From Anaerolineae bacterium (lineage in GTDB: Bacteria > Chloroflexota > Anaerolineae > Anaerolineales > UBA4823), in assembly GCA_003130835.1 (NCBI GenBank), contig QEXX01000081.1, positions 4,467-68,466 of the forward strand: DNA of 64,000 nt, written 5' to 3'. Of the stretch, positions 17,303-32,441 are shown piece by piece. The notes below the pieces were generated by a model. That model was given only the letters and a program-made list of their open reading frames with translations, was not told the DNA's origin and searched no databases. Positions within the stretch are counted from its first letter, which is position 1, and every line of letters starts with the position of its first letter. Both the position numbers and the translations under genes were made by a program.

Positions 17303-18847
17303 ATGCGATCACGCCTTCATCGATTAGGCAGCAGTTTGTGGGTTGGCATCCTTTTTCTGTGCGGGCTGGCTTGTGCGCGCAGTCTTGTGCCGGACAAGCC
17401 CAATTGGATTGCCCCCAATTCATCGCATCCCGAAATAAAGCCCACCGCTTTTTCGTTTTTTCCACCCACTCGCCCTGCTGGAGCGCCGATCTACACGCCA
17501 ACCCCGGATTTGCCTCACGATTTGCCACCCTTGCGGAGTGAGCCCGAACGCTATCTTGTCAAAGCCGGTGACACGTTAGGCAGCATTGCCCTTGCCTACA
17601 ATTTGCCTCTCGCCCAACTTGTCGAAGCGAATCAATTGAGCAACCCCGATGTCCTTGAGGTCGGTCAAGAATTGGTGATTCCTCAACCCACGCCGCAGGG
17701 CAGCGCGCCGGCATTCAAGGTCATCCCCGACTCGGAGTTGGTCTATGGGCCGATGACGATCCCCTTCGATGTGGCTGGGTTCATCGCCCAACAGCCCGGC
17801 TATATCGCCAAGTACAGCGAGGAAATCAACGATCAAAAGAAAAGCGCCGCTGAAATCGTCCAGCGCGTTGCCCAAGACTACTCGGTAAATCCGCGTTTAC
17901 TGCTTGCCATCCTCGAATACCAAAGCGGTTGGTTGAGCAACCCCAATCCCGGCAAGCAACAGCGCACCTATGCGGTTGGGCTGGTGGATGAGGAGCGCAA
18001 AAGCCTCTACCGCCAACTGGCTTGGGCAGCCAATCAACTCAACCGTGGTTATTACTTATGGCGGGTGAATGGCTTGGCGTTGTGGAATTTGATCGATGGC
18101 ACAACCCTGCGCATCGATCCGACCATCAACGCCGGCACGGCCGCCGTCCAGCATTTCTACGCTCAACTTCTGCCGTTCGAGCAGTGGCGGGCGGCTATCT
18201 CCGAGAATGGCTTGTTTGCCACCTATCAACGTTGGTTTGGCTACCCCTTTGATTACGCCATAGAGCCGTTGTTACCAGCAGGACTCTATCAACCGCCGCT
18301 TCAGTTACCTTTCGAGCCGGGCGTTCAGTGGGTCTTTACCGGCGGCCCTCATGGTGGCTGGGATAGCGGTTCGGCTTGGGCAGCGCTGGATTTCGCCCCC
18401 GACCGCGAAGCTGTCGGCTGTGTCCCTGCGGATGAGTGGGTGGTTGCAATGGCAAACGGGCCGATCGTGCGGGTCGGGGAAGGGGTGGTGATTCAGGATG
18501 TGGATGACCCCCAGAGTTCGCCGGCGGATGGCTATGAACAAACCGGCTGGGTGATCCTCTATATGCATATCGAAAGCCGTGATCGAGTCAGCGCTGGGGT
18601 TTATCTCAAAGCAGGGGAGCGCATCGGCCATCCCTCCTGCGAGGGCGGGATTGCCAGCGGGACGCATGTTCACATTGCGCGGAAGTATCATGGGGAATGG
18701 ATCCCGGCTGACCAGAACCTGCCTTTTGTCTTGGATGGCTGGGTCTCGGTGGGGACAGGGGTCGCTTATAATGGCTTTCTGCGGCGGGATGGCGTCAAAA
18801 TCGAAGCCTACGCTGGGCAGTCCGAGAAAAACCAGATCAGCCGATGA
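17303..18847 (+). CDS. LysM + M23-like peptidase lipoprotein (paralogue 1)
   Basis: lipobox-like GLAC; LysM YLVKAGDTLGSIA...NQLSNPDVLEVGQELVIP; GGPH...LDF and THVH. Confidence 0.85.
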   Translation: MRSRLHRLGSSLWVGILFLCGLACARSLVPDKPNWIAPNSSHPEIKPTAFSFFPPTRPAGAPIYTPTPDLPHDLPPLRSEPERYLVKAGDTLGSIALAYNLPLAQLVEANQLSNPDVLEVGQELVIPQPTPQGSAPAFKVIPDSELVYGPMTIPFDVAGFIAQQPGYIAKYSEEINDQKKSAAEIVQRVAQDYSVNPRLLLAILEYQSGWLSNPNPGKQQRTYAVGLVDEERKSLYRQLAWAANQLNRGYYLWRVNGLALWNLIDGTTLRIDPTINAGTAAVQHFYAQLLPFEQWRAAISENGLFATYQRWFGYPFDYAIEPLLPAGLYQPPLQLPFEPGVQWVFTGGPHGGWDSGSAWAALDFAPDREAVGCVPADEWVVAMANGPIVRVGEGVVIQDVDDPQSSPADGYEQTGWVILYMHIESRDRVSAGVYLKAGERIGHPSCEGGIASGTHVHIARKYHGEWIPADQNLPFVLDGWVSVGTGVAYNGFLRRDGVKIEAYAGQSEKNQISR

Positions 18848-20439
18848 AGCAAAAACCTTTCCACCGCTCCATAATCCTGCTGGTCAGTTTGGGGTTGTTG
18901 AGCCATCTGGCATGTCTGAGCACACCCTATTTTATTGCACCTCAGGCTTCTCCTACGCTGCCGGCAGAGCTTGCCATCTTTTCCGGCACCTTGCCGCCGA
19001 CCTATGCCCTCTTGCCCACCTCCACCGCTACTCCCGAGGCAACGAGCGGTGACCCAGGTGGGCTGCTTTTCGCCACTCCAACACCGATCACCCAGATGCC
19101 AACCGAGACGGTTGAGAGCCTGCCCATTCTCTACAACGCCCAAGCGGGTGACACTCTGGCGGCGGTTGCCGTGCGATTTGGCGTTTCGCCAGCCGAAATC
19201 AGCTCGCCCGATCCGTTGCCCGAAAAAGCGCTTCTACAGCCTGGCCAATTGTTGATCATCCCGCGGCGTTTGGCAAACACCACCACATCGGAACATATCT
19301 TGCCGGATAGTGAGCTGGTCTATTCCCCCTCCGCAGCCGATTTTGATGTCGAGGCGTATGTCGCACAGACCTCAGGCAAACTGCGCACCTATGAAGAATG
19401 GATGAAAAGCACCGGCACCATTAGCGGGGCACAGGTGCTGCAACGAGTAGCCATCGAAAACTCGATCAACCCCCGCCTTTTGCTGGCGCTCTTGGAATAT
19501 CAGAGCGGCTGGGTCAACGGTCAGCCCACAGAGGCGGAGAAATTGCGCTACCCAATGGGCTACATCGACCCCTTTCAGCCAGCCTTATTCCATCAATTGG
19601 TCTGGGCGGTCAATCAACTTTCCATCGGCTATTATGGCTGGCGTGAAGGCCGCTTGACCGAGCTGACCTTTGTCAAAGACCGCTATAAAGCCCGCTTGGC
19701 GCCGGACCTCAACGCCGGCAGCGTTGCCATCCTATACTACTTTGCCCAACTCTATGACAGCCAAGGTTGGCTGAAAGCGGTTGACCCGCAAAGCGGCTTC
19801 CCGGCTTTTTATCGCCAGATGTTCGGCGATCCTTGGGCACGGGCGGCCCTGGTCGAGCCCCTTTATCCACCGGGCTTGGAACAACCGCCGCTCAGCTTGC
19901 CGTTTGAACCCAATCAGATTTGGAGCTACACCGGCGGTCCGCACGGCGCCTGGGAGCGGGATGGCTCGTATGCAGCCTTGGATTTTGCGCCCCCCTCCTC
20001 TGAGCCGGGCTGTGTTGCCTCCAATGCATGGGTAACCGCTTCAGCCTCCGGGCTGGTTGTGCGTTCAGAACGCGGCTTGGTGGTCTTAGATTTGGATGGC
20101 GACGGGCGCGAGCAGACCGGATGGGTGCTGATTTATTTGCATGTCTCTTCAGAAAGCAGTGTTCCGGTCGGTACTTGGGTAGCGCGCGGTGACCGTTTGG
20201 GCCATCCCTCCTGTGAGGGCGGCATTGCTACCGGCACGCATGTCCATATTGCCCGCAAGTTCAACGGCGAATGGATTGCCGCCGATGGCCCGGTGCCCTT
20301 TAATCTAAGTGGTTGGATTGCCGTGGCAGGTGAAGAAGCCTATAAGGGTTTTTTGGTGCGCGGCGATCAAGTCGTGGTGGCAAACACCAATGCCTCACGG
20401 AAGTCGTTCATCATGCTCAGCGATGCAGATCTTCAATAA
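18844..20439 (+). CDS. LysM + M23-like peptidase lipoprotein (paralogue 2)
   Basis: HLAC lipobox; LysM YNAQAGDTLAAVA; GGPH...LDF and THVH; ATGA overlap with paralogue 1. Confidence 0.85.
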   Translation: MKQKPFHRSIILLVSLGLLSHLACLSTPYFIAPQASPTLPAELAIFSGTLPPTYALLPTSTATPEATSGDPGGLLFATPTPITQMPTETVESLPILYNAQAGDTLAAVAVRFGVSPAEISSPDPLPEKALLQPGQLLIIPRRLANTTTSEHILPDSELVYSPSAADFDVEAYVAQTSGKLRTYEEWMKSTGTISGAQVLQRVAIENSINPRLLLALLEYQSGWVNGQPTEAEKLRYPMGYIDPFQPALFHQLVWAVNQLSIGYYGWREGRLTELTFVKDRYKARLAPDLNAGSVAILYYFAQLYDSQGWLKAVDPQSGFPAFYRQMFGDPWARAALVEPLYPPGLEQPPLSLPFEPNQIWSYTGGPHGAWERDGSYAALDFAPPSSEPGCVASNAWVTASASGLVVRSERGLVVLDLDGDGREQTGWVLIYLHVSSESSVPVGTWVARGDRLGHPSCEGGIATGTHVHIARKFNGEWIAADGPVPFNLSGWIAVAGEEAYKGFLVRGDQVVVANTNASRKSFIMLSDADLQ

Positions 20440-21874
20440 AGTCCTTAGATACCTGCGCCCGGCGATAACCCTGTTGGCAGGTGCAGGCTTGGTGGCGCTC
20501 AGCGCCTGTCAAAGGCAGGCGGTTGCCGCTCCGAATCAAGGGCTTATCGATTCGGGGTTTACCCTTACCCAACCTGTCCTTGCCTCCCCGCAGCCTTCTG
20601 CCCGGGCTACTTTGCCTTGGCTTCTTCCTTCCCTCACCGCTACGGCTTTGCCTGCACGCCCGACACCAACCTTGACACCATCCCCAAGTTTTGCCCTGCC
20701 CGATAGTGAGGTGGTTTACTCGCCTTCGGCAATCGATTTTGACGTCCACGCTTATTTAGACCAGACCTCAGGATTCCTGCGAAGTCACCGCGAATACCTG
20801 AAAAGCACTGCTTGGACCAGTGCAGCCGACATCGTGCAACGCGTTGCCTTAGAGAACTCGATTAATCCCCGCCTGCTGCTCACGTTGCTTGAGATGCACT
20901 GTGGTTGTGTCAGCGGTGATCTGCGCCAAGGTGTGCCAATCGACTATCTGCTCGGCAACACCGATTTCCGCCGTCAGGGATTGTTCCGGCAATTGAGCTG
21001 GGCAGCCAGTCGTTTATCGGCTGCATACTATGGCTGGAAGGCCGGTCAGGTTTCAGAAATCGTCCTTCAAGATGGCTCGCTCATCCGGCTCGATCCCCGT
21101 TGGAACGCCGGCAGTGTCGCGGCGCTGTATTTCTTTGCTTTTTATGACGTGCAGACTGTCCACCGTGTCCTGCATGCGGAATCCGGCTTGCTGGCGACTC
21201 ATCGACGCTTGTTTGGGGATTTCGAGCACAGGGCTGCCGCTGTTGAACCTTTGCTGCCTGAGGGGCTAAGCCAACCTCCTTTTATCCTGCCATTTGAAGT
21301 TGGGCGGATGTGGGCTTTGACCAGCGGGCCCCATGTGGTTTGGGAAACAGAAGGGGCAATGGGGGCATTAGATTTTGCCCCGGCAACGTATGATCATGGG
21401 TGTGTCCCGACCGATGCTTGGGTGACCGCCGTAGCCGATGGCAGGGTGGTGCGCTCGGAGTTCGGGGCGGTCGTGTTAGACTTGGACGGCCCGAACGGCG
21501 AGCCAGCCGATGGGTTTGAGCAAAGCGGGTGGGCGGTGCTCTATCTGCACATTGCGGAAAAAGGGCGCGTCTCGGTTGGCGAGCGGCTAAAGGCTGGCGA
21601 CCGCATTGGGCAGCCCTCCTGTGAAGGCGGACGTGCCACCGGCACACACGTTCATATCGCCCGCAAGTATAATGGGGAGTGGATCCCGGCGGCTGGGGCG
21701 ATTCCGTTCGAGCTGGATGGTTGGATTGCCCAAGCCGGTGAGAAGCCTTACGAAGGCAGTTTGGTGAAAGATGGACAACAAGTCATTGCCCAACCGGTTG
21801 GTTCCTATGTTACGAAAATTGCGCGACCGACGTTTACCCCAACGTTACCCTCCCCCCCAACTCCATTCCCATAG
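20423..21874 (+). CDS. M23-like peptidase lipoprotein lacking LysM (paralogue 3)
   Basis: LSAC lipobox; same core (PDSEVVYSP, NPRLLL, SGPH...LDF, THVH), no LysM segment; start set at ATG 20423. Confidence 0.8.
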   Translation: MQIFNKVLRYLRPAITLLAGAGLVALSACQRQAVAAPNQGLIDSGFTLTQPVLASPQPSARATLPWLLPSLTATALPARPTPTLTPSPSFALPDSEVVYSPSAIDFDVHAYLDQTSGFLRSHREYLKSTAWTSAADIVQRVALENSINPRLLLTLLEMHCGCVSGDLRQGVPIDYLLGNTDFRRQGLFRQLSWAASRLSAAYYGWKAGQVSEIVLQDGSLIRLDPRWNAGSVAALYFFAFYDVQTVHRVLHAESGLLATHRRLFGDFEHRAAAVEPLLPEGLSQPPFILPFEVGRMWALTSGPHVVWETEGAMGALDFAPATYDHGCVPTDAWVTAVADGRVVRSEFGAVVLDLDGPNGEPADGFEQSGWAVLYLHIAEKGRVSVGERLKAGDRIGQPSCEGGRATGTHVHIARKYNGEWIPAAGAIPFELDGWIAQAGEKPYEGSLVKDGQQVIAQPVGSYVTKIARPTFTPTLPSPPTPFP

Positions 21875-22130
21875 CGAAAGGGAGGAGAGCTTCCCATCCT
21901 CCGTCAAGAACGGGGCTAGGGGTGAAGACAGGCGGCGTGATGCTTCTGCCCCCCGGAAACGATCGGCTCGGTTGTCTTCACTCATTGGGAGCCGCACGAG
22001 CGGTCAAGAGAGACCGCCTCACGCTCCTGCCCAAAGCGAGCAATCGCTTCGCTTTCCTTCTCCCCTAGGGAAAAGGGCTGGGGATCAGGGCATGCTCCCC
22101 TCGCCCAGCGGGCGAGGGGCTAGGGGTGAG
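21868..22130. repeat. CCCTCxCCC...GGGxGAGGG-type palindromic repeats
   Basis: GGGGCTAGGGGTGA occurs twice; CTCCCCTAGGGAAAAGGG and CTCCCCTCGCCCAGCGGGCGAGGGG hairpins resemble the module at 23.97 kb and 29.41 kb. Confidence 0.65.
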
Positions 22131-23606
22131 GGCATTTTCTTGGTGTTTCTTCTCCTCACCCTGCTGCTCGGCAGTTGCAATTTTCCCATGCCCAGCCAAT
22201 CGGAGGCCGAACCTTTGCCGGCCTTTGCCCAGGCATGGCAAGAGAACGCTACCCCTACCCCGCAAGCGACTCCTCTCCCAACCCGCCCGATCTATGCGCC
22301 CGGTGAGCTGGTGGATTACACTGCGCAAAGCGGCGATACGCTGCCCCTGCTGGCTTTGCGCTTCAACACGAGCGTGGAAGAAATTTTAGAAGCCAACCCC
22401 TTTATCCCCCAATCGGCGACGACCATGCCGCCGGGCATGCCGATGAAGATCCCCATTTATTACAACCCTCTGTGGGGCAATCCCTATAAAATCATCCCAG
22501 ACAGCGTATTCGTCAACGGGCCGCGCGCCAAAACCTTTGATACCGCTGCGTTTGTCGCTCAACAGCCTGGCTGGTTGAACGGCTATCGCGAGTACGCCGC
22601 CCGAGCCACTCGCTCTGCGGCCGAGATTGTGGACTATGTTGCCCGCCATTACAGCGTCAGCCCGATGCTCCTGCTTGCCCTTTTGGAAGTTCATTCGGAA
22701 GCTTTAAGCAACCCACAGCCGAGTGCGGACGCTCTCACCTACCCACTTGGCTACCATAATCCATATCGCAAAGGGCTGTATTCCCAACTGATTTGGACAG
22801 CGAACACCCTCAACAATGGATATTACGGCTTTCGGGCTGGTCAACTGTTGGGGGTGGAGTTCGAGGACGGACGCGAAGAGCGTTTTGACCCCTGGCTCAA
22901 CGCCGCAACGGCTGCTCTTCATTATTATTTCAATATCCTGCTCGATGACGAAGCCTACCGCTGGGCAGTCAGTCCGCAAGGTTTTGCCTCAACCTATCAA
23001 CGCCTGTTTGGCGATGCTTGGTTGGATGATGAACCTCATCTGCCCGGCAGTCTGGAGCAGCCACCCTTGCGCCTGCCCTTTCAGCCGGGTGGCGTTTGGG
23101 CGTATACCGGGGGTCCTCATACCGCGTGGGGAACAGGTCAACCCTTTGCGGCGATTGATTTTGCGCCGCCTTCAGTGGCTACAGGGTGCGTCTCTTCGGA
23201 ACAGTGGGTGACGGCGGTTGCCGATGGGGTGGTGACCTATGTCGATGTCGGCGAGGTCACGTTGGATTTGGATGGGGATGGAGACGACCGCACCGGTTGG
23301 GCAATTTTTTACCTGCATGTTGCCTCGAAAGACCGCGTACCCTTGGGAGCACAACTCAAGGCTGGCGATCCCATTGGTCATCCTTCCTGTGAAGGGGGAA
23401 CTGCGACCGGCACGCATGTCCATATTGCCCGCAAGTATAACGGCGAGTGGATTCTTGCCGAAGGTGTGTTAGCTTTCAACCTCGAAGGGTGGATTGCTTA
23501 TAACGGCTCCCGTCCGTATTTGGGTACCCTCAAACGCAATGGGGTAACGGTCATTGCTTCGGATAAAGCGGTTGCCTCTAGCCATCTTGAAGCCGGCTTG
23601 CCCTAA
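22092..23606 (+). CDS. LysM + M23-like peptidase lipoprotein (paralogue 4); start uncertain
   Basis: LLLGSC lipobox; LysM YTAQSGDTLPLLA; GGPH...IDF and THVH; ATG 22092 chosen, although the frame is open back to 21771. Confidence 0.8.
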   Translation: MLPSPSGRGARGEGIFLVFLLLTLLLGSCNFPMPSQSEAEPLPAFAQAWQENATPTPQATPLPTRPIYAPGELVDYTAQSGDTLPLLALRFNTSVEEILEANPFIPQSATTMPPGMPMKIPIYYNPLWGNPYKIIPDSVFVNGPRAKTFDTAAFVAQQPGWLNGYREYAARATRSAAEIVDYVARHYSVSPMLLLALLEVHSEALSNPQPSADALTYPLGYHNPYRKGLYSQLIWTANTLNNGYYGFRAGQLLGVEFEDGREERFDPWLNAATAALHYYFNILLDDEAYRWAVSPQGFASTYQRLFGDAWLDDEPHLPGSLEQPPLRLPFQPGGVWAYTGGPHTAWGTGQPFAAIDFAPPSVATGCVSSEQWVTAVADGVVTYVDVGEVTLDLDGDGDDRTGWAIFYLHVASKDRVPLGAQLKAGDPIGHPSCEGGTATGTHVHIARKYNGEWILAEGVLAFNLEGWIAYNGSRPYLGTLKRNGVTVIASDKAVASSHLEAGLP

Positions 23607-23723
23607 GGCGCTTTGATGAACTGCTGAGAGGCAGCGCATCCTGGTTGCGCCTTGCTCGGAGTGGCAGGCGTCCTCGCCTGCGCCATTGGGCGGACGGGGA
23701 CGTCTGCCCTCTGGGGCGTTCGC

Positions 23724-24020
23724 TTACGGGTTGCGTAGCGCAACGTATCGAAACCCGCTGGGTTGAGCAGTGTGCTGAGCTTGTCGAAGCGCCTGTCGAA
23801 ACCCGCTGGGTTGGGTCTCGGTACGGGCTGACGCCCTACTCGACCCACAGGAAGGCGCGGGTTGAGCTTGCATTGAGTTTGTCGAAATGTAGCGAGCGCC
23901 AGCGAGCGTACCGAAACCCGCTGGGTTAGGTCTCGGTACGGGCTGAGGCCCTACTCGACCCGCCATACTCCCCTCGCTCCTCGTGGGAGAGGGGTTGGGG
24001 GTGAGGGTCACTCCCCTCGC
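23724..24020. repeat. composite REP/BIME-like cluster (inverted relative to the 29.3 kb cluster)
   Basis: 33-bp core GGTCTCGGTACGGGCTGACGCCCTACTCGACCC at 23814-23846 and 23929-23961 (1 mismatch); GAAACCCGCTGGGTT three times; GAGCTTGTCGAAG module; GGGAGAGGGGTTGGGGGTGAGGG module. Confidence 0.9.
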
Positions 24021-24136
24021 CTGTGCAGCACACGGGGATGGCCGCACCCCGGCAGAGCCTTTGCAACCTTCAGCAACAGCCGATTGAGCGACGCAGCAAC
24101 CCATTCGGCGCAGATAATCGGAAAAAGGTAGAGTGA

Positions 24137-25021
24137 CTAAACTTCGGGATATAACCCCTTGCCAGGGATCACGTGACGGATTCCCCCACGCGGATCTTCC
24201 ACATCGCCTTTATAGCGGGGGATGATATGAATGTGCACATGTGGGATGGTTTGTCCTGCCGCTTCTCCTACATTGAAACCCACATTAAACCCCTGCGGTG
24301 AGAATCGCTCTTTGAGGATTTCCTTGACCCGTTCGACTACGATCCACAAAGCTGTCTTGTTATGGGTGGAGAGTTCAAAATAATCCGCTAGATGTTTCTT
24401 GGGAATCACCAGGGCATGGCCGGGTGAAACAGGATACTTATCCAAAATGGCATAAGCCGTCGCCGACTCGGTTAGCAATTCTCGCTCCGTATCCGGAGCA
24501 CAGAAGGGACACTGCTGCGGTTGTGCATGAGTCTGTTGGTTATAGTGCTGATAAACATAAATTTCTGAACTCTCCGAACAATAGATGCTCTTGTACGGGA
24601 GTTTTACATTGCATTGATACACACTGACGCCGTGTTTTAAGTGAGTGCGAAAACCGTCGCGGCGGATATCGCGGCGAACCGAAAAATAAGCTTTTCCCTG
24701 CGGTTTCAACAATTCAGAGACAGCCATCAAGACCTGCACCTGTTCCTCAGGGAGCAAAACATTAAGAACATAAAAGCATAAAATCGTATCAAACTTTCCT
24801 TGTGGTTCAGCCGGAAAATAATGGGGGTCGTAGCCTACTACGTCCAAGCCTTTCTGACGCAAGAATTCTACATCCACGCCAAGCCCGCAACCGAAATCCA
24901 ATATTCGTCCACATAGGTATCCTTGTTTCCACAGATAGCGAACCGGAAACGAAGGCTCTTTCCGCTCTTTGACGGTCAGATGGCTATAAGGATTCTGGGG
25001 AGAACGGTAAACCAAGTTCAT
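24137..25021 (-). CDS. class I SAM-dependent methyltransferase fused to a HIT-family nucleotide hydrolase
   Basis: ILDFGCGLGVD, GYDPHY and FYVLNVL (MTase); CPFC, KYPVSPGHALVIPK and HVHIHIIPR (HIT triad); ATG overlaps the HNH gene stop (ATGA). Confidence 0.9.
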   Translation of the reverse strand: MNLVYRSPQNPYSHLTVKERKEPSFPVRYLWKQGYLCGRILDFGCGLGVDVEFLRQKGLDVVGYDPHYFPAEPQGKFDTILCFYVLNVLLPEEQVQVLMAVSELLKPQGKAYFSVRRDIRRDGFRTHLKHGVSVYQCNVKLPYKSIYCSESSEIYVYQHYNQQTHAQPQQCPFCAPDTERELLTESATAYAILDKYPVSPGHALVIPKKHLADYFELSTHNKTALWIVVERVKEILKERFSPQGFNVGFNVGEAAGQTIPHVHIHIIPRYKGDVEDPRGGIRHVIPGKGLYPEV

Positions 25022-26133
25022 GAGCGAAATCTCCAACCCGTTACAAAACCCATATTCGCCGCAATTTGGATCTGAGGCGCAATCACCTCGTACAACTTAT
25101 CCCGAAAGGTTGAAAAACTCATACTTTGCAACTCCTCAAGCGTTGGGATTCTAAAAAGAAGCACATAATCTTCAAGCAGTCTTTCCTTTCGGGGTGTTTC
25201 TAACACAATCTGAATAGCTTGATGTTGAAGCTGAGCAAAACGGTCAAAATAAGAAAGGTCGGGGACACAATCACTTTTGGCAGAGTTAACCCTTCGGCTA
25301 GTCGGCGCAAGATTCCATAGAGAATCATGGGCAACAAAGCGCCAGGGTAAAAAATGATCGATTGAATAAGCGCCTCGATGCAACGGCTCCTCAGAATAAA
25401 TGCAATTTATCTGTCCCTTTCTTGACAACACGAGATTCCAAAATTCCCTTGCCAAGTGTAAGTCTCGTTGGGTTGGAGCAAACAATTTCGCAGCGATATT
25501 AGGAATGTTGGGATTATTCTTCTGCAAATAATTGAGCAGATTCCACAAACAGAAATCGGTCAGAATCGCTAAGTGTTGTTGTAGATATTCGTACCAATCG
25601 GGATGAATTTCGATCCCCCATTCGGGGCTTTCAACAAAGCGATATAGGCAAGGTTCAGGCGAAGAGAAAGATGCTTCCGCTAGTTGACGAATGCTGCGAT
25701 TGATTTTCCAATCCACCATGCCCCGTAAAGACTGTGCAAAGAAAGGACGCAAAAAACGATAGGGGACAAAGTCCGCCAAGTGCGCAATTTGACGCCCTAT
25801 CTCATCCCGCTGTGAGAGATGTTGATGGGCGACCTCGATAATCTGGTGTTGGGGACTATTTGCATCCAAATCTGACCCTGTGCCTATCAAAGTGACCAAC
25901 TTTCCGATTTGATCCTGTTTTCCAAACGAAAGGCGGTAAAAATTCAATGGATACCAGGAATGACCGATCATATATGCTAAAAGAGAATCGATAGCAATTA
26001 CCCTCCCCATTCCCTGACGCACATGGTCTAAAATTACCAGAAACCAATAGAACTTATAGGAATTCGTTACTTGTTCAAAACTTGAACTCAGTGCGGAGAT
26101 GGGTAATTTTGGAGAATTCGGAAGCGCAATCAT
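25018..26133 (-). CDS. HNH endonuclease domain protein with N-terminal helical domain
   Basis: C-terminal CIYS...SIDHFLPW...WNL.......NSAKSD HNH motif; N-terminal TNSYKFYWF motif. Confidence 0.88.
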   Translation of the reverse strand: MIALPNSPKLPISALSSSFEQVTNSYKFYWFLVILDHVRQGMGRVIAIDSLLAYMIGHSWYPLNFYRLSFGKQDQIGKLVTLIGTGSDLDANSPQHQIIEVAHQHLSQRDEIGRQIAHLADFVPYRFLRPFFAQSLRGMVDWKINRSIRQLAEASFSSPEPCLYRFVESPEWGIEIHPDWYEYLQQHLAILTDFCLWNLLNYLQKNNPNIPNIAAKLFAPTQRDLHLAREFWNLVLSRKGQINCIYSEEPLHRGAYSIDHFLPWRFVAHDSLWNLAPTSRRVNSAKSDCVPDLSYFDRFAQLQHQAIQIVLETPRKERLLEDYVLLFRIPTLEELQSMSFSTFRDKLYEVIAPQIQIAANMGFVTGWRFRS

Positions 26134-26419
26134 TATCCCACGCTATTTCTTGAGTTAAGGCAACACCAGTATTTATTTTACCCGCATTCCCTCTTCATCA
26201 CACGAGTTCTTGATTTTTAAGAAAATGATTGCATGGCTGAATTGATGATAAAGAACGAGACTTCCAGTCTTCCTTTCATCACCTTATGTTTTCTGTGGTA
26301 ATTTGACGTTTGCAAACAGACTTATCGGTACACCACTTATTCGGATTACCCCAACCTTTTGGTGGGGGTCGGACTATACTCTATAGCGTGAGCGCTCACC
26401 TTATGCCTTGTGGAGGACG

Positions 26420-26983
26420 ATGGACGAAGAGACTGCCATCCGACGCTTGAAAGCCGGCGATCTGGCCGGGCTGGAGTTCCTGGTCTTACGCTACCAAGTT
26501 AAGGCATTGCGGGTTGCCAACCTGATCACGCGGGATTTACCCCTTGCCGAAGATGTGGTGCAAGATTGTTTCCTGCGCCTCATCCGTGCCATCCGCAGTT
26601 TCGACTCGCAACGCCCGTTTGAACCTTGGTTTCTGCGCAGTGTGGTGCGCGCAGCGGTCAGAGCGGCTCAGCAGGCAAAACGCAACCTTCACGCCCAAAG
26701 CCAGGCGGAGGAAGATTGGTTTGAAAACCTGCTGGGCAGCCTTCAATCTGCCGAAGCGGAAGTGGAGGCGAGGCAGACTCGCCAAAGCGTACAAGATGCG
26801 CTGCAACAGCTTTCCCCTCGTCAGCGGGCGGTGCTGGTGCAACGCTATTACTTGGGTTGGAGTGAAAAAGAGATGGTTGACGAGCTTGGACTGCGCCCCG
26901 GAACGGTGAAGTGGTTGTTGAACGCTGCTCGCACCCGTCTGCGCGCCGTGTTGGAGAAAGGAGGGCGAGATGAAACCCGATGA
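26420..26983 (+). CDS. ECF (sigma-70 group 4) RNA polymerase sigma factor
   Basis: AEDVVQDCF, FEPWFLR, LQQLSPRQRAVLVQRYY and GTVKWLLNAAR; RBS GGAGG before ATG 26420. Confidence 0.93.
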   Translation: MDEETAIRRLKAGDLAGLEFLVLRYQVKALRVANLITRDLPLAEDVVQDCFLRLIRAIRSFDSQRPFEPWFLRSVVRAAVRAAQQAKRNLHAQSQAEEDWFENLLGSLQSAEAEVEARQTRQSVQDALQQLSPRQRAVLVQRYYLGWSEKEMVDELGLRPGTVKWLLNAARTRLRAVLEKGGRDETR

Positions 26984-29027
26984 GCGTCTAACGGCTGCCT
27001 TGCAAGCCATCGCCCGCCAGGAAGTGCCAGACACGGTCAACCTTTGGCCACAACTGGCAACGCACCTCGAACAAACGGAGATGAAAACGATGAAACCCAC
27101 CTTGAAGATCATTGCTTTGTTGCTGTTGGTTTTGTTAACGCTTGCGCTGGTGAGCGGCGCAGCTTATGCCCTCTATCAGTACTTGCGCGGCGATGCCGGC
27201 CTAGAAGCGGTCAGCCAAGCCGGGTTGGTGAGCGAACCGAATATCACGGCTCTGCCCACGCCTCTCCCCACACCCACCCCCTTGCCGCCCGCCGCGCGGT
27301 TGGGGCAAGCCCAAACCCTGCAGCAGGTCACCCTCAGCCTCGATTGGGTGTATCTGGACGATGGGTGGCAGGCAATCGGGTTTTCGGTGCAGGGCTTGAA
27401 AGCATACCAAAGGTTAGGCATGCCTCAACTCGATTTTGGCGAGCTTCAACCCGAACAATACCGCGGCGCGGGCATGGCGCTTTTGCCAAGCGAGACGGGG
27501 TTGCAAGGCCGCTATGTTGTCTATCAAATCCTGCGCCATCCAGAAACCTACCCGGCCGCCGACACCTTCGTTGACCTCAACCTCACGATTCCCTTACTCG
27601 ATGGGAACGGCAATCTTCTGGACACCTTCCGCTTTACCGCCCCACATCTGCCGCTGCACCAAACTCCGTTTGGTGGCGCAAACACCTATGCCGTGCGGTT
27701 GAGCGGCTTGGAGATGCGCCTCGAGTGGGTGGTAGCAACCCCGCAAGAGACGCGCCTCAAGCTCTGCTATCAACAACCTCGCCCTCCCCACCTGAAGCTA
27801 AAACCGATTGTCAAAGCGCAAGCAGGGCAGGGGCAAGAAAGCGCAGCGGTCTTGGATGGCCCGGCTGTGCCAGCGCAACAGGTGATCGAAATCGCCGCCC
27901 AAGTTGGTTGGCGCTGTGTAGAGGCGGTCTTTCCCCCTCTCCCTGAGCAGGTGTCGGCCGTCATCGTAGTGGCTGACGGGCTCACAGACGCGGAGGGAAA
28001 AGACCTGGCCGCAAGTCCGGAGTTCGTTTGGGCAGAATTGCCGTGGCAGAAAGCCATTGCGGGTATTGATCCCCTTCCTGTGCAGTCCATTGGCGAGGTT
28101 AAAGTGACCCTCTTGCAAGCCTATGTGGACGCTTTGCGCGCTGCCCTGGTTTACCGCATCGAAGGATTGACCTCCGAGCCGTTTATCGATGTCCAACTGA
28201 CCGATCTAGAAGGGAAACCCTTCTTCGCCTCCAGCGGCGGCTTTAGCACCTATGAAAACGATCCGAGCATCTATATCGCCACCTTAACGTTTGCCAAACC
28301 ATCTGGGCGCAAAGCCGACAGCGATTTCTTCTCGCAACGCGAGCCAATTTTGAACGGACGCTTCGTCGGCAAAGTGACGTTGCTCCTCAACCCATGGGAT
28401 GCGCAAGGAGGGCAGGAGTTCACCTTCGATCTGGATGTACCGGCTTTCCCGGCTGTGACCCTCACCCCTGCCCAAAGCGTCCTTTCTCAAGGTTTGGAGA
28501 TGCGTTTAGAACGCTTGGCGATCAGCCCCTCTTACACCAAAGCCTACCTATGTTATCAGAAACCCAGTCAGGCGGATTGGATGCTCTCCGATCAGACCAG
28601 CTTACAGATCGGGCAAGCCCAAGCTGGGCTGAACGAGTTTGCCTTGGTGTATGATGAGGATTTCGGGATGCAAGCCCGTCCCGAATGGGCGAGTTTGTCT
28701 GGCAGGGTGCGTTGTGTTGAAGCTGGCTTTGCCGTCGGCCATCACAGCCAGCCCGAAACCCTGCTCCTGACGGTCAATGAATTGTCTCAAAGTGTCCCGG
28801 AAGTCATCCCCGACGATCAATTGCAAGCTGCCAAAGAGAAACTGCGTCAGCAAGGGATTGAAATCGAATGGATGACTTTTAGCGAAAACGGGGGCGGCGG
28901 TGCAGCCCCGCAGATCAAACAAAAACCCGACCATCTGACGGATATGGACGTGATGCGGCTGTTCTACGAAGCGCTTGGCTATACCTTTAAGGGCAATTGG
29001 GCATTTCAGGTGCAGATTCAACCCTGA
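26970..29027 (+). CDS. putative anti-sigma factor, membrane-anchored, large extracytoplasmic region (DUF4179-like)
   Basis: overlaps the ECF gene 3' end; short N-terminal segment, one hydrophobic helix, then repeated beta-rich modules (VTLSLDWVYLD, LEMRLEWV, VKVTLLQAYVD, LEMRLERL). Confidence 0.65.
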   Translation: MKPDERLTAALQAIARQEVPDTVNLWPQLATHLEQTEMKTMKPTLKIIALLLLVLLTLALVSGAAYALYQYLRGDAGLEAVSQAGLVSEPNITALPTPLPTPTPLPPAARLGQAQTLQQVTLSLDWVYLDDGWQAIGFSVQGLKAYQRLGMPQLDFGELQPEQYRGAGMALLPSETGLQGRYVVYQILRHPETYPAADTFVDLNLTIPLLDGNGNLLDTFRFTAPHLPLHQTPFGGANTYAVRLSGLEMRLEWVVATPQETRLKLCYQQPRPPHLKLKPIVKAQAGQGQESAAVLDGPAVPAQQVIEIAAQVGWRCVEAVFPPLPEQVSAVIVVADGLTDAEGKDLAASPEFVWAELPWQKAIAGIDPLPVQSIGEVKVTLLQAYVDALRAALVYRIEGLTSEPFIDVQLTDLEGKPFFASSGGFSTYENDPSIYIATLTFAKPSGRKADSDFFSQREPILNGRFVGKVTLLLNPWDAQGGQEFTFDLDVPAFPAVTLTPAQSVLSQGLEMRLERLAISPSYTKAYLCYQKPSQADWMLSDQTSLQIGQAQAGLNEFALVYDEDFGMQARPEWASLSGRVRCVEAGFAVGHHSQPETLLLTVNELSQSVPEVIPDDQLQAAKEKLRQQGIEIEWMTFSENGGGGAAPQIKQKPDHLTDMDVMRLFYEALGYTFKGNWAFQVQIQP

Positions 29028-29161
29028 GCGGCTGTTCACAAGAACCGGGCATCGGTTGTGGCGAAGCGGTGGGGTTGTCAAAATCCCCTAGGGAGGAAGC
29101 ATTTTCTGCCAAGCCTGCGATTGGGCTTGAGAGTCTCTTTCGATTAGAGGGGGACATTCTT

Positions 29162-29286
29162 GACTCTACTGAAAAAAGCCTGTTCACCACGAAGACACAA
29201 AGGCGCTAAGACAATATAAAAACGAAAACTTCGTGGCTTTGTGTCTTTGTGACTTTGTGGTTCCATACCCTTTTTACAGTGGACTC
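29162..29286. mobile_element. MITE-like element, 125 bp
   Basis: imperfect 17-bp inverted ends (GACTCTACTGAAAAAAG / CTTTTTACAGTGGACTC, 14/17), flanked on both sides by ATTCTT; internal CACCACGAAGACACAAAG...CTTTGTGTCTTTGTG palindrome. Confidence 0.6.
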
Positions 29287-29337
29287 ATTCTTCTTTTCTT
29301 ATCTTAGAGAGATGATTTGTCCGCTGGTGTTTTACGC

Positions 29338-29640
29338 AGGTCGAGTAGGGCGTCAGCCCGTACCGAGACCCAACCCAACGGGTTTCAGTACGCTGCGCTA
29401 GTCAACCTGTCCCTCACCCCCAACCCCTCTCCCACGAGGGGCGAGGGGAGTGCGGCGGGTCGAGTAGGGCGTCAGCCCGTACCGAGACCCAACCCAACGG
29501 GTTTCGGTACGCAACCTGTCCCCTCACCCCCAACCCCTCTCCCTCGAGGGGCGAGGGGAGTGCGGCGGGTCGAGTAGGGCGTCAGCCCGTACCGAGACCC
29601 AACCCAACGGGTTTCAGTACGCTGCGCTACTCAACCCGCA
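29338..29640. repeat. composite REP/BIME-like cluster, three units
   Basis: 33-bp core at 29338, 29457 and 29567, each followed by CAACCCAACGGGTTTC; alternates with CCCTCACCCCCAACCCCTCTCCC...GGGGCGAGGGGAG; lies between convergent genes. Confidence 0.92.
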
Positions 29641-29755
29641 AGGTAACGCCGCAGGGCGGACGAGGGGTTGGGCACCTTCCTAAGGGAAGCCCTGTGCTTA
29701 TCAAAGTGCCAGACGCAAGCTGAAGGCCGTTCCTCAAACGCATCCGTATCCCGCC

Positions 29756-31168
29756 TCAAGCCCCGTCTGAGCTTATCGACTGGTTATCTTGCGTTTCGAC
29801 CTTTGCCAACAAGGCTTTGGCTTGTGCCAACTGGCGTTGGACGGCTTCGGGAGCGGTGCCCCCTTCGGCGCGGCGGCGGCTGACACTGCGCAGCGGATCG
29901 AAGACCGCATAGAGGTCTGCTTCAAAGCGCGGACTGACGGACTGATAGACTTCCAGCGGTAGCCGATCGATCGGAACCCCTCGTTCTTCCGCCAGCCGCA
30001 CCACCTTACCGACCAACTCATGCGCCAAGCGGAAAGGCAGCCCTTTTTCTACCAAATAATCGGCTAAATCGGTGGCATACAGAGCCGCATCCAGGGCAGC
30101 GGCTAAGCGCGGTGGGTTGACCTGCAAGGTGGCAAGCGCGCCGCTCAGGGCTGGCAATAACTCCATCAGCGTATCGTAAGCGGCAAACACCGGCGGCTTG
30201 TCTTCCTGTAGGTCTTTGTCATACGTGGAGGGCAATCCTTTTAGGGTGGTTAGCAAGCCGCCTAGCAGTCCCACCAACTTGCCGGCTTTGGCGCGCCCCA
30301 GCTCGAACAGATCGGGGTTTTTCTTTTGCGGCATCAAACTGGAACCGGTGGAATAGGCATCGGCTAGGGTAAAGAAACCGAACTCGGCGCTGGTAAAGAT
30401 CACCATGCTCTCACACAGGCGCGAGAGATGCAAGCCGATCAGGCTGGCGCAGAAAAGGAACTCGGCGGCAAAATCGCGGTCGGAAACGCCATCCAAGCTG
30501 TTGGCACAAGGGGCTTCAAACCCCAACTCGGCCGCCAGGGCTTGACGGTCAATGGGGAACGGCGCCCCAGCCAAGGCACCGCTGCCCAAAGGTAAGATGG
30601 CGGTGCGTTTACGCAGGTCGTGCAGGCGTTCTCGATCCCGTTGCAAGGGCCAAAAATGAGCCAACCACCAATGGCTGAGTAAAATCGGTTGGGCGCGTTG
30701 TAAATGGGTGTAGCCGGGCAGGACGAGAGCGCCGGCTTGCTCGGCGCGCTGCACCAAAACCGACTGAAATTCTCGCAAGGAGGCCCCAAGTCGAGCAATC
30801 GCTTCTAAAACCCACAACCGGAAATCGGTCGCCACTTGATCGTTGCGGCTGCGCGCGGTATGCAGTTTGCCGGCCGGCTCTCCGATCAGCTCTGCCAGAC
30901 GCCGTTCGACGGCGGTGTGAATATCCTCATCCTTGGGTTGGAATCGGAACGAGCCTTCGCGCAGCTCGGTTAAGATCGTCTCCAGCCCAGCCTGGATTTG
31001 GGCATTCTCTTGCGGCGTGAGCAAGCCACTGTTGCACAGCGCCTTTGCCCACGCCTGACTGCCGCGCACGTCTTGTTCTGCCAGGCGCCGGTCAAACGCA
31101 ATCGAAGCGTTCAACTGCCAGGCAGAATCTTCCAAAGAATCCCGAAAGCGGCCACCCCATAATGTCAT
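29756..31168 (-). CDS. argH: argininosuccinate lyase
   Basis: LWGGRF, EDIHTAVE, RSRNDQVATD, GYTHLQRAQP and STGSSLMPQKKNPD. Confidence 0.97.
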   Translation of the reverse strand: MTLWGGRFRDSLEDSAWQLNASIAFDRRLAEQDVRGSQAWAKALCNSGLLTPQENAQIQAGLETILTELREGSFRFQPKDEDIHTAVERRLAELIGEPAGKLHTARSRNDQVATDFRLWVLEAIARLGASLREFQSVLVQRAEQAGALVLPGYTHLQRAQPILLSHWWLAHFWPLQRDRERLHDLRKRTAILPLGSGALAGAPFPIDRQALAAELGFEAPCANSLDGVSDRDFAAEFLFCASLIGLHLSRLCESMVIFTSAEFGFFTLADAYSTGSSLMPQKKNPDLFELGRAKAGKLVGLLGGLLTTLKGLPSTYDKDLQEDKPPVFAAYDTLMELLPALSGALATLQVNPPRLAAALDAALYATDLADYLVEKGLPFRLAHELVGKVVRLAEERGVPIDRLPLEVYQSVSPRFEADLYAVFDPLRSVSRRRAEGGTAPEAVQRQLAQAKALLAKVETQDNQSISSDGA

Positions 31169-31181
31169 CGCTTGTCCTTTC

Positions 31182-32441
31182 TTAATCTCGCTTGAAGCGC
31201 GAATAGTCCGGTTGGGGCATATCCAAACCGGAAACGGGCAGTCCGTTCAGCGCCCGCACCTTGAGCGGCAAACCAAACAAGCGGATAAAGCCCTGAGCAT
31301 CGGTTTGGTTATAGACATCCTCCTGCCCAAAGGTGGCAAAATCTTCGCGGTATAGGCTGAAGGGACTCTTGCGTCCGGCGACTAAGAGATTGCCCTTATA
31401 CAGCTTCAAGCGCACTTCGCCGCTTACCGGTCCTTGCGTGTTATCCACAAAGGCATCCAGGGCTTCCCGCAGGGGCGAAAACCACTGGCCATTGTACACC
31501 AACTCGGCATATTTCAACGCCACCAGGTCTTTGAAGTGCAAAGTCTCTTTATCCAGCGTGAGCGATTCCAATTCGCGATGGGCAGCCAGCAGGATGGTGC
31601 CGCCCGGCGTTTCATAGACGCCGCGCGATTTCATCCCCACCAAACGGTTCTCAACCAAGTCAACGCGCCCGATGCCGTGTTTGCCGCCCAAGCGGTTTAG
31701 GCGTTCGATTAAGGTGGCTGGCGAGAGCTTTTCTCCGTTCAGTGAAACCGGTGTGCCGCTTTCAAACCCGATTTCGATCGTTTCGGGTTGGTCGGGGGCG
31801 TTTTGGGGCGAAACGCTCAACTGGAACATCTCTTCTTCGGGTTCGTTCCACGGGTCTTCGAGAGGGCCGCCTTCATGCGAGAGGTGCCACAAGTTGCCAT
31901 CGCGGCTGAAGATCGACTTCAACGATGCCTTGATCGGCACGTTGTGCTTTTGAGCGTAGGCAATGGCATCCTCCCGCGAGCGAATATCCCACTCTCGCCA
32001 CGGGGCAATCACCTTCAAGCGCGGGTCCAGCGCCATATAGGTCAGCTCAAAACGCACCTGATCGTTCCCCTTGCCCGTTGCCCCGTGAGCGACGGCATCG
32101 GCGCCGACCTGATGGGCAACCTCAACTTGATGTTTGGCAATCAAGGGCCGGGCTATCGAGGTGCCGAGCAGATATTTGCGCTCATAGACGGCTCCAGCGC
32201 GCAAGAGGCGAAACAGATAGTCGCGGGCAAACTCTTCGCGCAGATCGCGCACGATCAATTGACTGGCGCCGCTCGCCAGCGCCTTTGCCTCTAAACCTTC
32301 CAACTCCTCAACCTGGCCGACATCGGCAGTGAAGCAAACCACTTCACAGCCATAGTTTTCCTTGAGCCAGGGGACGATGACGGAAGTATCCAGGCCGCCC
32401 GAATAGGCGAGAACAACTTTTTGAACGGTGGGTTTGATCAT
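31182..32441 (-). CDS. argG: argininosuccinate synthase
   Basis: [36 protein letters not shown] and [13 protein letters not shown]; RBS GGAG before ATG 32441. Confidence 0.97.

Follow-up and report, generated by a model that had tools for sequence, protein, structure and literature searches.

The 64,000-nucleotide stretch of Anaerolineae DNA analyzed here, termed the window, contains in its segment 24105-26349 two genes, one for an HNH endonuclease and one for a fusion of a class I S-adenosylmethionine (SAM)-dependent methyltransferase with a HIT domain. This pair is a real, horizontally acquired and widespread mobile cassette, and it belongs to a lineage that is repeatedly found inside DNA-phosphorothioate (Ssp, Dnd, bacteriophage exclusion (BREX) type 4-like) gene clusters. 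The reading that we favor, and to which we give about even chances, is that the segment constitutes a self-contained mobile two-gene nuclease cassette and a candidate defense module, in which the partner of the nuclease acts on the phosphate or phosphorothioate of DNA or nucleotides, with restriction of foreign DNA as the net result.

The association of the two genes was assessed in 80 loci fetched with the HNH protein as the query and in further loci fetched with the fusion protein. In about 50 of these 80 loci, which stem from at least ten phyla including Chloroflexota, Bacteroidota, Calditrichota and Ignavibacteriota, the HNH gene is immediately followed by a methyltransferase-HIT gene, and the two genes usually overlap or are separated by a few bases. 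Likewise, the HNH gene is located directly upstream in eight of the nine fusion-query loci that hold the methyltransferase part, the ninth contig (L090) beginning at the fusion gene. The pattern-based locus search with the fusion protein otherwise recovered mostly irrelevant stand-alone housekeeping HIT genes of Gammaproteobacteria. An earlier interpretation of this DNA, made from the letters alone and called the sequence-only reading in the following, was to be given up if the genes rarely co-occurred; the tight linkage across phyla is the opposite of that outcome.

Variant architectures extend this picture. In the 824-residue metagenomic protein P0355, an EEP (Exo_endo_phos) domain, a methyltransferase of the cassette type (35% identity), the N-terminal region and HNH_4 are joined in one polypeptide, and this fusion is direct evidence, at the level of domain architecture, that the parts of the cassette probably work together. 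A divergent second branch of HNH proteins (L088, L089 and L091), homologous over nearly the whole length (hhalign 98.6%), pairs either with a methyltransferase-HIT gene or with a stand-alone HIT gene (Methanolinea archaeon; Chitinophagales bacterium). As this divergent branch is also paired with HIT alone, HNH plus HIT appears to be the older core. In pairwise comparisons, the divergence of the HNH proteins follows the methyltransferase half of the fusion (r = 0.67) more closely than its HIT half (r = 0.31). Other members of the HNH family carry a C-terminal S24 LexA-like peptidase (P0339) or an N-terminal HTH_3 domain (P0347, also on Synechocystis pSYSM).

The genomic surroundings of the cassette were characterized by clustering the neighboring open reading frames and annotating representatives of the recurrent clusters. 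Genes of the phosphorothioate type are neighbors in 15 of the 60 loci for which 4 kb or more of upstream sequence was available and in 13 of 38 among the loci that include the fusion gene. Relatives of the cassette are thus enriched beside ssp, dnd and BREX type 4 genes, as the sequence-only reading had suggested checking. Clusters of sspBCD have been reported in 3% of genomes (PMC12914056). Recurrent neighbors comprise DUF4007/SspB (255 bits), an SspC/BrxC-like P-loop ATPase, a phosphoadenosine phosphosulfate (PAPS) reductase of the SspD/DndC type, a DndA-like cysteine desulfurase, BrxL and PglZ-like proteins as well as TIGR04095, the 'DNA phosphorothioation system restriction enzyme', which was matched with 384 bits at a cut-off of 600. 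The usual gene order is DUF4007 - ATPase - (PAPS reductase) - HNH - methyltransferase-HIT - (desulfurase), and one locus (L033) features a complete dndC-dndD-dndE-dndA row. The remaining neighbors belong to the common inventory of defense islands and include AEP-TOTE helicase, SMODS cyclase, NERD, a PIN-domain protein, Schlafen/AlbA_2 and a nuclease similar to NucS. Orphan copies are intermixed in the HNH tree with copies linked to phosphorothioate genes, and loci of the latter kind are among the closest relatives that the window copy has outside its genus.

With respect to known systems, the arrangement DUF4007(SspB) - SspC/BrxC-like ATPase - (SspD) - HNH - methyltransferase-HIT - (cysteine desulfurase), in some loci with PglZ-like and BrxL genes behind it, places the cassette relatives in the position held by the restriction partner in SspABCD with SspE or SspFGH and in BREX type 4, the components of which are homologous (PMC12914056, PMC12839542). 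Neither cassette protein, however, matches a restriction component of Ssp or Dnd in Pfam or PADLOC at the thresholds used. In loci L029, L056, L065, L040, L010 and L021, DUF4007 and the SspC/BrxC-like ATPase are followed by HNH and methyltransferase-HIT and no PAPS reductase was detectable, with a cysteine desulfurase present in L010, L021 and L029. In L021 and L015, genes for PglZ-like proteins and BrxL come next, which makes a BREX type 4-like row that is devoid of the BrxP PAPS domain.

A family member of the HTH-HNH type resides on the plasmid pSYSM of Synechocystis PCC 6803 (L168, record 17880-31183) among genes for DUF4007, a DUF6079-like ATPase and a cysteine desulfurase. The ATPase gene is truncated and lies next to a LAGLIDADG endonuclease gene, and MNT/HEPN and RelE/HigA pairs are also present. 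A TIGR04096 methyltransferase is encoded about 5 kb from the HTH-HNH gene, beside a gene for a 97-residue HNH protein.

The window copy itself is an orphan and, whatever its function, has no phosphorothioate-writing genes in its own genome to act with. When the whole 94%-complete assembly was searched by tblastn with 12 DUF4007 proteins and with SspC-like, SspD-like, DndC/D/E, PglZ-like, BrxL, TIGR04095 and KptA proteins as queries, ordinary cysteine desulfurases alone were found, and genes for SspB/C/D, DndC/D/E, PglZ and BrxL were absent. This status bears on a possible role of the pair in phosphorothioate housekeeping instead of defense, namely the processing of phosphorothioate-containing DNA or of products of its breakdown, whereby the HIT domain would desulfurize nucleoside phosphorothioates and the methyltransferase would methylate sulfur species, the cassette being idle in a phosphorothioate-free genome such as this one. 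Hint and Fhit enzymes can indeed desulfurize nucleoside 5'-phosphorothioates, the cassette lies between sspB/sspC-type and desulfurase genes in many loci, and the methyltransferase exhibits weak similarities of the TehB/TPMT type. Most cassettes as well as the window's own genome nevertheless lack phosphorothioate genes and yet retain all catalytic motifs, and neither the endonuclease as a constant partner nor the fusion of EEP, methyltransferase and HNH is explained by a housekeeping function, which we regard as highly improbable.

Within the window, the cassette is made up of the following features:

24105..24136: left edge of the low guanine-plus-cytosine (GC) segment, between the cluster of repeats resembling repetitive extragenic palindromes (REP-like) and the stop codon of the fusion gene, placed by GC profile and repeat positions
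24137..25021, minus strand: methyltransferase-HIT fusion gene, 294 residues from the ATG plus stop, from open reading frame and domain matches
24140..24544, minus strand: HIT domain, residues 160-294, with the intact triad H261-V-H263-I-H265 (codons 24227-24241)
24548..25021, minus strand: class I SAM methyltransferase domain, residues 1-158, with motif I LDFGCGLGVD, motif IV region CFYVLNVL, and VRRD
25018..25021, minus strand: ATGA stop/start overlap of the HNH and methyltransferase-HIT genes, read directly from the sequence (...cgctcATGAacttgg...), a site of probable translational coupling
25018..26133, minus strand: HNH endonuclease gene, 371 residues plus stop, from the open reading frame call, with Pfam HNH_4 at residues 244-291
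25261..25404, minus strand: Cas9-type beta-beta-alpha-Me HNH core, with the D259-H260 codons at 25354-25359 and with N274 and N283 also present
25414..26133, minus strand: N-terminal region of the HNH protein, residues 1-240, mostly helical and family-specific, including the nearly invariant TNSYKFYWF helix
26134..26349: AT-rich spacer upstream of the cassette (GC 41-42%), probable promoter region and right edge of the inserted segment

The frame of the fusion gene is open up to 25036, where an alternative TTG start is located five codons before the ATG at 25021. To the left, the cassette is flanked by an M23 peptidase gene (21771-23606, plus strand), the last of four tandem M23 paralogues, and to the right by the gene for an extracytoplasmic function (ECF) sigma factor (26408-26983, plus strand), part of an ECF sigma/anti-sigma pair spanning 26408-29027. 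The description given by the sequence-only reading, that of an AT-richer two-gene unit with an ATGA overlap that runs opposite to both neighbors and adjoins a REP cluster, was confirmed by open reading frames, sequence, base composition and the repeats at 23740-23960, and the motifs it had listed (TVKERKEPSFPV, DFGCGLGVD, GYDPHY and YVLNV) were all found in the translation. The GC content of the cassette amounts to 45.6% compared to 55.7% for the rest of the window and 51.2% for the whole 3.45-Mb assembly, and in 400-nt windows it is 42-48% across 24200-26400 vs. 55-64% in the flanks. The deviation from the genome is about 6 points and not the 10-20 points implied by the earlier spot counts. 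The REP-like unit, cgaaacccgctgggtt..., is repeated to the left of the cassette at 23747, 23796 and 23912 within the cluster 23740-23960; its pattern, cgaaacccgctgggtt[ga]ggtctcggtacgggctga.gccctactcgaccc, occurs also near 29300-29600 and, when translated, yields PVPRPNPAGF peptides of spurious open reading frames on both strands. A consensus scan around the cassette revealed neither a sigma-70-like promoter in 26134-26349 nor a terminator-like site at 24105-24136, nothing scoring above shuffled expectation.

The distribution of the cassette is patchy. The HNH gene is present in four of the seven genomes of the same genus. Sampling of 34 further genera from the family and order yielded no copy, and a single one of 300 genomes drawn from the phylum had it. 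Homologues stem from Chloroflexota, Bacteroidota, Ignavibacteriota, Calditrichota, Cyanobacteriota, Latescibacterota and Planctomycetota, among others, and are encoded on 22 plasmid records. With one weak homologue (27% identity, unannotated) as the only counterpart in the phage collection, the cassette does not typically belong to phages. Phyla are broadly clustered in the HNH tree, with orders and classes of Chloroflexota mixed at short distances. In two genomes of the genus (G001 and G003) the cassette occupies the site that it has in the window, and two others (G004 and G005) possess an ortholog of the sigma factor gene with no cassette beside it, G005 having a copy 22 kb away. Nucleotide homology with the relatives from the genus, including the cassette-less sites, begins at window position 26349/26350, and the inserted segment therefore spans approximately 24105-26349. 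In 43 out of 43 loci the GC content of the cassette is below that of its flanks, with a mean difference of 6.6 points. The patchy distribution, the cassette-less sites in G004 and G005 and the uniformly lowered GC content support the horizontal acquisition that had been inferred before, while vertical conservation across the clade, named by the sequence-only reading as evidence against its proposal, is contradicted by the counts for the genus (four of seven) and the other genera (0 of 34).

The same data are relevant to the view that the segment is a selfish or decaying remnant of a lost phosphorothioate or BREX4-type island with no current function in this organism. The absence of any partner-system genes from the genome would fit this explanation, as would the damaged HNH genes of two relatives from the genus, one with a TAG stop and one with a frameshift. 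On the other hand, both window genes run over their full length and have lost none of their catalytic residues, and among the genomes of the genus the cassette and its flanking genes diverge at similar rates (identities: HNH 74%, methyltransferase-HIT 78-87%, sigma factor 80-84%, anti-sigma factor 65%), which indicates purifying selection. We consider a functionless remnant very unlikely. The interrupted HNH copies are G003:C70:1602-2708 (L002) and G005:C18:336707-337817 (L004/L005), one with an in-frame TAG and the other with a frameshift near codon 16-33; the methyltransferase-HIT genes of G003 and G005 align over their full length, and the interruptions may represent real decay or errors in the assembly of the metagenome-assembled genomes (MAGs). 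Near-identical rows of NUDIX - HNH - Schlafen/AlbA_2-HATPase_c_4 genes in Latescibacterota and Gemmatimonadota MAGs (L083/L084/L085), and an almost identical locus of HNH and a 129-residue open reading frame shared by Brevefilum (L016) and a 'Thiomargarita' MAG (L022), reflect recent transfer or mis-binning.

As judged from its residues, the HNH protein is predicted to be a DNA endonuclease with an intact Cas9-type HNH site. HNH_4 is its sole Pfam match (37.2 bits vs. a cut-off of 22, residues 244-291), and the score above the gathering threshold is accompanied by the catalytic D-H, N and N residues. Homologues number 552 and are all about 370 residues long; in 32 of them, aligned from many phyla, D259, H260, N274 and N283 as well as the TNSYKFYWF helix near the N-terminus are invariant. 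The AlphaFold2 (AF2) model, with a predicted local distance difference test (pLDDT) value of 94.4, exhibits a mostly helical region of about 240 residues that is followed by the beta-beta-alpha-Me core and a helical tail. Matches in NCBIfam and PADLOC are limited to Cas9 HNH domains, and a Foldseek search of the PDB with the whole model returned weak matches to Cas9-HNH and McrA (best E 0.09). For residues 1-240 there was no match in Pfam or NCBIfam, and no significant fold match beyond the HNH core in the PDB or BFVD. Since the fold searches match weakly and to the HNH core alone, the N-terminal region is without a solved relative. Its profile retrieved 2040 representative clusters, nearly all with the same architecture. 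The idea that this region is a DUF4007/BrxA-like DNA-binding module was rejected (hhalign probability 0.15%).

Two groups of characterized nucleases can be compared with this protein. The Cas9 HNH domain (HNH_4) provides the best family and fold matches and shares the D-H...N...N beta-beta-alpha-Me core without zinc-binding cysteines; in contrast to Cas9, the cassette protein has no RuvC, REC or guide-RNA apparatus, and the similarity spans about 50-100 residues. The type IV enzymes of the ScoMcrA type that occur in Dnd loci, with the architecture SBD(wHTH)-SRA-HNH, are likewise HNH endonucleases with an N-terminal DNA-reading region adjoining phosphorothioate modification genes. They differ in that the core of the cassette protein is of the Cas9/HNH_4 type and in that the cassette contains an enzymatic partner gene. 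Pfam detected neither SRA nor SBD in residues 1-240, and there was no chain of the ScoMcrA type among the best 50 Foldseek matches in the PDB, where EcoKMcrA was the sole enzyme of the McrA type and matched weakly (E 0.6).

The methyltransferase-HIT fusion is already annotated by NCBI, yet uncharacterized: its 3327 homologues carry the name 'bifunctional class I SAM-dependent methyltransferase/HIT family protein'. Pfam identifies HIT with 83.3 bits (cut-off 21.5) and Methyltransf_23 with 50.3 bits (cut-off 27), Methyltransf_25/11/12 also matching, and the AF2 model reaches a pLDDT of 92.7. The methyltransferase domain is characterized by LDFGCGLGVD, D65-P66, CFYVLNVL, VRRD and a conserved N-terminal lid, HLTxKERxxPSFP. 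When the fusion model was used for a fold search, HIT chains alone appeared among the best 50 matches, which is uninformative with regard to the substrate of the methyltransferase. A word-indexed search with the methyltransferase domain yielded the same fusion family throughout the best 120 matches, with no alternative architectures among the matches listed.

The sequence-only reading had pointed to a resemblance to TIGR04096. This holds at the level of the domain, which is 30% identical over about 140 residues to that of the TIGR04096 protein from Synechocystis pSYSM, but not for family membership: the match is partial, reaching 53.1 bits against a curated cut-off of 150 and covering model positions 5-90 of 478. 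TIGR04096 proteins, e.g., WP_011153563.1 from pSYSM of Synechocystis PCC 6803, belong to the same small class I methyltransferase subfamily and share the R..S.P.R lid, D(F/Y)GCG.G.D, G(Y/W)DP and YV(L/I)NV(L/I). They are encoded beside phosphorothioate genes and next to nucleases, as are the relatives of the cassette, and usually accompany the TIGR04095 restriction enzyme, TIGR04096 itself being uncharacterized. In place of the long flanking regions of the 690-residue Synechocystis protein, the cassette protein bears a HIT domain.

Taken by its sequence, the methyltransferase does not look like a DNA-base methylase. It possesses no (D/N/S)PP(Y/F/W) or PC(Q) motif, the motif IV region reading CFYVLNVL, and the domain ends after about 155 residues without a target-recognition domain, with Pfam matches exclusively to models of the small-molecule type. 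These properties have to be set against classical restriction-modification, i.e., methylation of a host DNA base by the methyltransferase and cleavage of unmethylated incoming DNA by HNH. An operon that joins the genes of a nuclease and a methyltransferase by translational coupling would suit such a system, methyltransferase motifs that stay invariant while other parts vary are what would be expected if loss of the enzyme were lethal, and restriction enzymes of the HNH type exist (KpnI). However, a 155-residue class I domain of the small-molecule type that lacks both a target-recognition domain and the (D/N/S)PP(Y/F/W) or PC motif is the wrong type of methyltransferase, catalytically intact HNH genes occur without a methyltransferase in about 20 loci, and the HIT, EEP and KptA companions would be left without a role. 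Given the unsuitable type of methyltransferase and the loci with HNH alone, restriction-modification is distinctly unlikely.

The C-terminal half of the fusion protein belongs to the HIT superfamily, with HVHIHII at residues 261-267 and fold matches to 1y23, 3imi and Fhit at a probability of 1.00. Among solved structures, it most resembles bacterial Hit (1y23/3imi), Ap4A phosphorylase (3ano) and Fhit, with which it shares the fold and the HxHxHxx triad at no more than 40% identity to 3imi and 2eo4 over the domain. Unlike members of the Fhit and bacterial Hit branch, the HIT domain of the cassette is fused to a methyltransferase, its gene is coupled to that of a nuclease, and many relatives can do without its catalysis.

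Across about 50 full-length fusion copies the motifs of the methyltransferase show no variation, and the companion domains are exchanged among relatives. In P0355, the EEP domain occupies the place where HIT would be. In four loci of Spirosomataceae (L050, L056, L068 and L069, e.g., L069:9103-9651), the HNH and methyltransferase-HIT genes are separated by an inserted gene for Tpt1/KptA RNA 2'-phosphotransferase (NF002014, 258 bits), and in the same clade the HIT nucleophile is replaced (HASIH/HAALH). One lineage of Latescibacterota/Gemmatimonadota is devoid of the fusion gene and has a NUDIX hydrolase gene directly upstream of HNH. HIT, EEP, Tpt1 and NUDIX proteins all act on nucleotide phosphoester or phosphoanhydride bonds or on the terminal phosphates of nucleic acids. 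As far as domain content can tell, the swaps consistently point to a phosphate-centered substrate, and it is because the companion domains (HIT, EEP, Tpt1/KptA and NUDIX) all act on phosphate that a phosphate or phosphorothioate substrate is proposed for the methyltransferase-HIT protein.

Under the favored reading of the pair as a mobile nuclease cassette, the HNH protein would be the DNA-cutting effector, and its family-specific helical N-terminal region would select the DNA to be cut. The methyltransferase-HIT protein, made in fixed proportion by virtue of the ATGA overlap, would act together with the nuclease on the phosphate or phosphorothioate of DNA, either in the backbone or at nick ends, or on that of a nucleotide. 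By this action it may license or restrain the nuclease or render its cuts irreparable, and the outcome would be restriction of foreign DNA.

In the literature searched, comprising recent comparative papers on Dnd, BREX and BREX type 4, DefensePredictor and a preprint on component modularity, the pair of HNH and methyltransferase-HIT is undescribed. No system model of PADLOC-DB v2 matches it, in agreement with the sequence-only reading, which did not recognize it as a named system, and the matches obtained are to generic domains (Cas9 HNH, ThsC HIT with 3e-13, mad2 methyltransferase with 6e-6 and PDC-M01B with 0.024).

A number of observations weigh against the favored reading. HNH genes with intact catalytic residues occur without a methyltransferase-HIT gene in about 20 loci, which rules out the fusion protein as a universal antidote. 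The central histidine of the HIT triad, the nucleophile in Fhit and Hint, is intact in the window copy and replaced in about 20 of 52 copies (about 40%; HASIH, HAALH, HFSIF, etc.), so that HIT chemistry is dispensable in many lineages. The solved sequence relatives of the methyltransferase are weak ones of the small-molecule type such as TehB and UbiG. The evidence from domain swaps is limited to one fusion protein, one clade of Spirosomataceae and one NUDIX lineage. About two-thirds of the cassettes, along with the genome studied here, are devoid of any Ssp, Dnd or BREX4 gene, and as most cassettes thus lack phosphorothioate genes, phosphorothioate cannot be a required substrate. The interrupted HNH gene in two relatives from the genus means that the cassette may be decaying in the clade. 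Finally, the literature searched contains no phage-challenge or toxicity result for the pair.

Some of these points also count against a toxin-antitoxin or abortive infection system, in which an HNH toxin would be restrained by the methyltransferase-HIT protein and its Fhit-like HIT domain would sense or degrade a nucleotide alarm, e.g., a dinucleoside polyphosphate (ApnA). The genes are coupled, the nearest kin of the HIT domain are Fhit, Ap4A phosphorylase and bacterial Hit, some Thoeris systems include a HIT protein (ThsC), and HNH-only relatives adjoin an SMODS nucleotide cyclase or a NUDIX hydrolase, all of which would be in line with such a function. Nevertheless, the HIT nucleophile is lost in about 40% of the copies, which argues against a universal signal based on nucleotide hydrolysis, while the methyltransferase never decays; furthermore, HNH occurs without its partner, and the HNH protein contains no recognizable nucleotide-sensor domain. 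We judge this explanation to be unlikely. The proposal of the sequence-only reading stands as far as a horizontally acquired nuclease with a methyltransferase-HIT partner is concerned, that is, a candidate defense module related to dnd-associated methyltransferases; a universal nucleotide-signal role is weakened by the loss of the HIT nucleophile in about 40% of copies, and an antitoxin or signal-sensing role of the fusion protein is not supported by the evidence.

A bolder proposal, for which we see a very low probability, is that the methyltransferase-HIT protein and the HNH protein, acting as a nickase, carry out or read an undescribed chemistry of the DNA backbone or of DNA ends. Possible forms are SAM-dependent methylation of the phosphorothioate sulfur or methylation of the 5'-phosphate at a nick made by HNH; in the latter variant, HIT, EEP, KptA or NUDIX could possibly handle a nucleotidyl or ADP-ribosyl intermediate. 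In L029, L056 and L065, where DUF4007 and the SspC-like ATPase are encoded and no PAPS reductase is detectable, the pair might replace SspD/BrxP in a variant modification pathway.

Phosphorothioate-based defense (Dnd, Ssp and BREX type 4) is being actively studied, and which nucleases restrict DNA in these systems is still debated. The cassette described here is a frequent and strongly conserved occupant of phosphorothioate loci that also travels alone, as in this genome. Cultured carriers of the pair, i.e., Runella aurantiaca, Fibrella musci, Arundinibacter roseus and Alkalitalea saponilacus, make it directly testable, and pSYSM of the model cyanobacterium Synechocystis PCC 6803 offers a tractable place to test the HNH family. 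If the cassette is a defense system, it would add a new effector and a new partner logic to restriction biology, and it might also bring to light a novel type of DNA modification, located in the backbone or at the ends.

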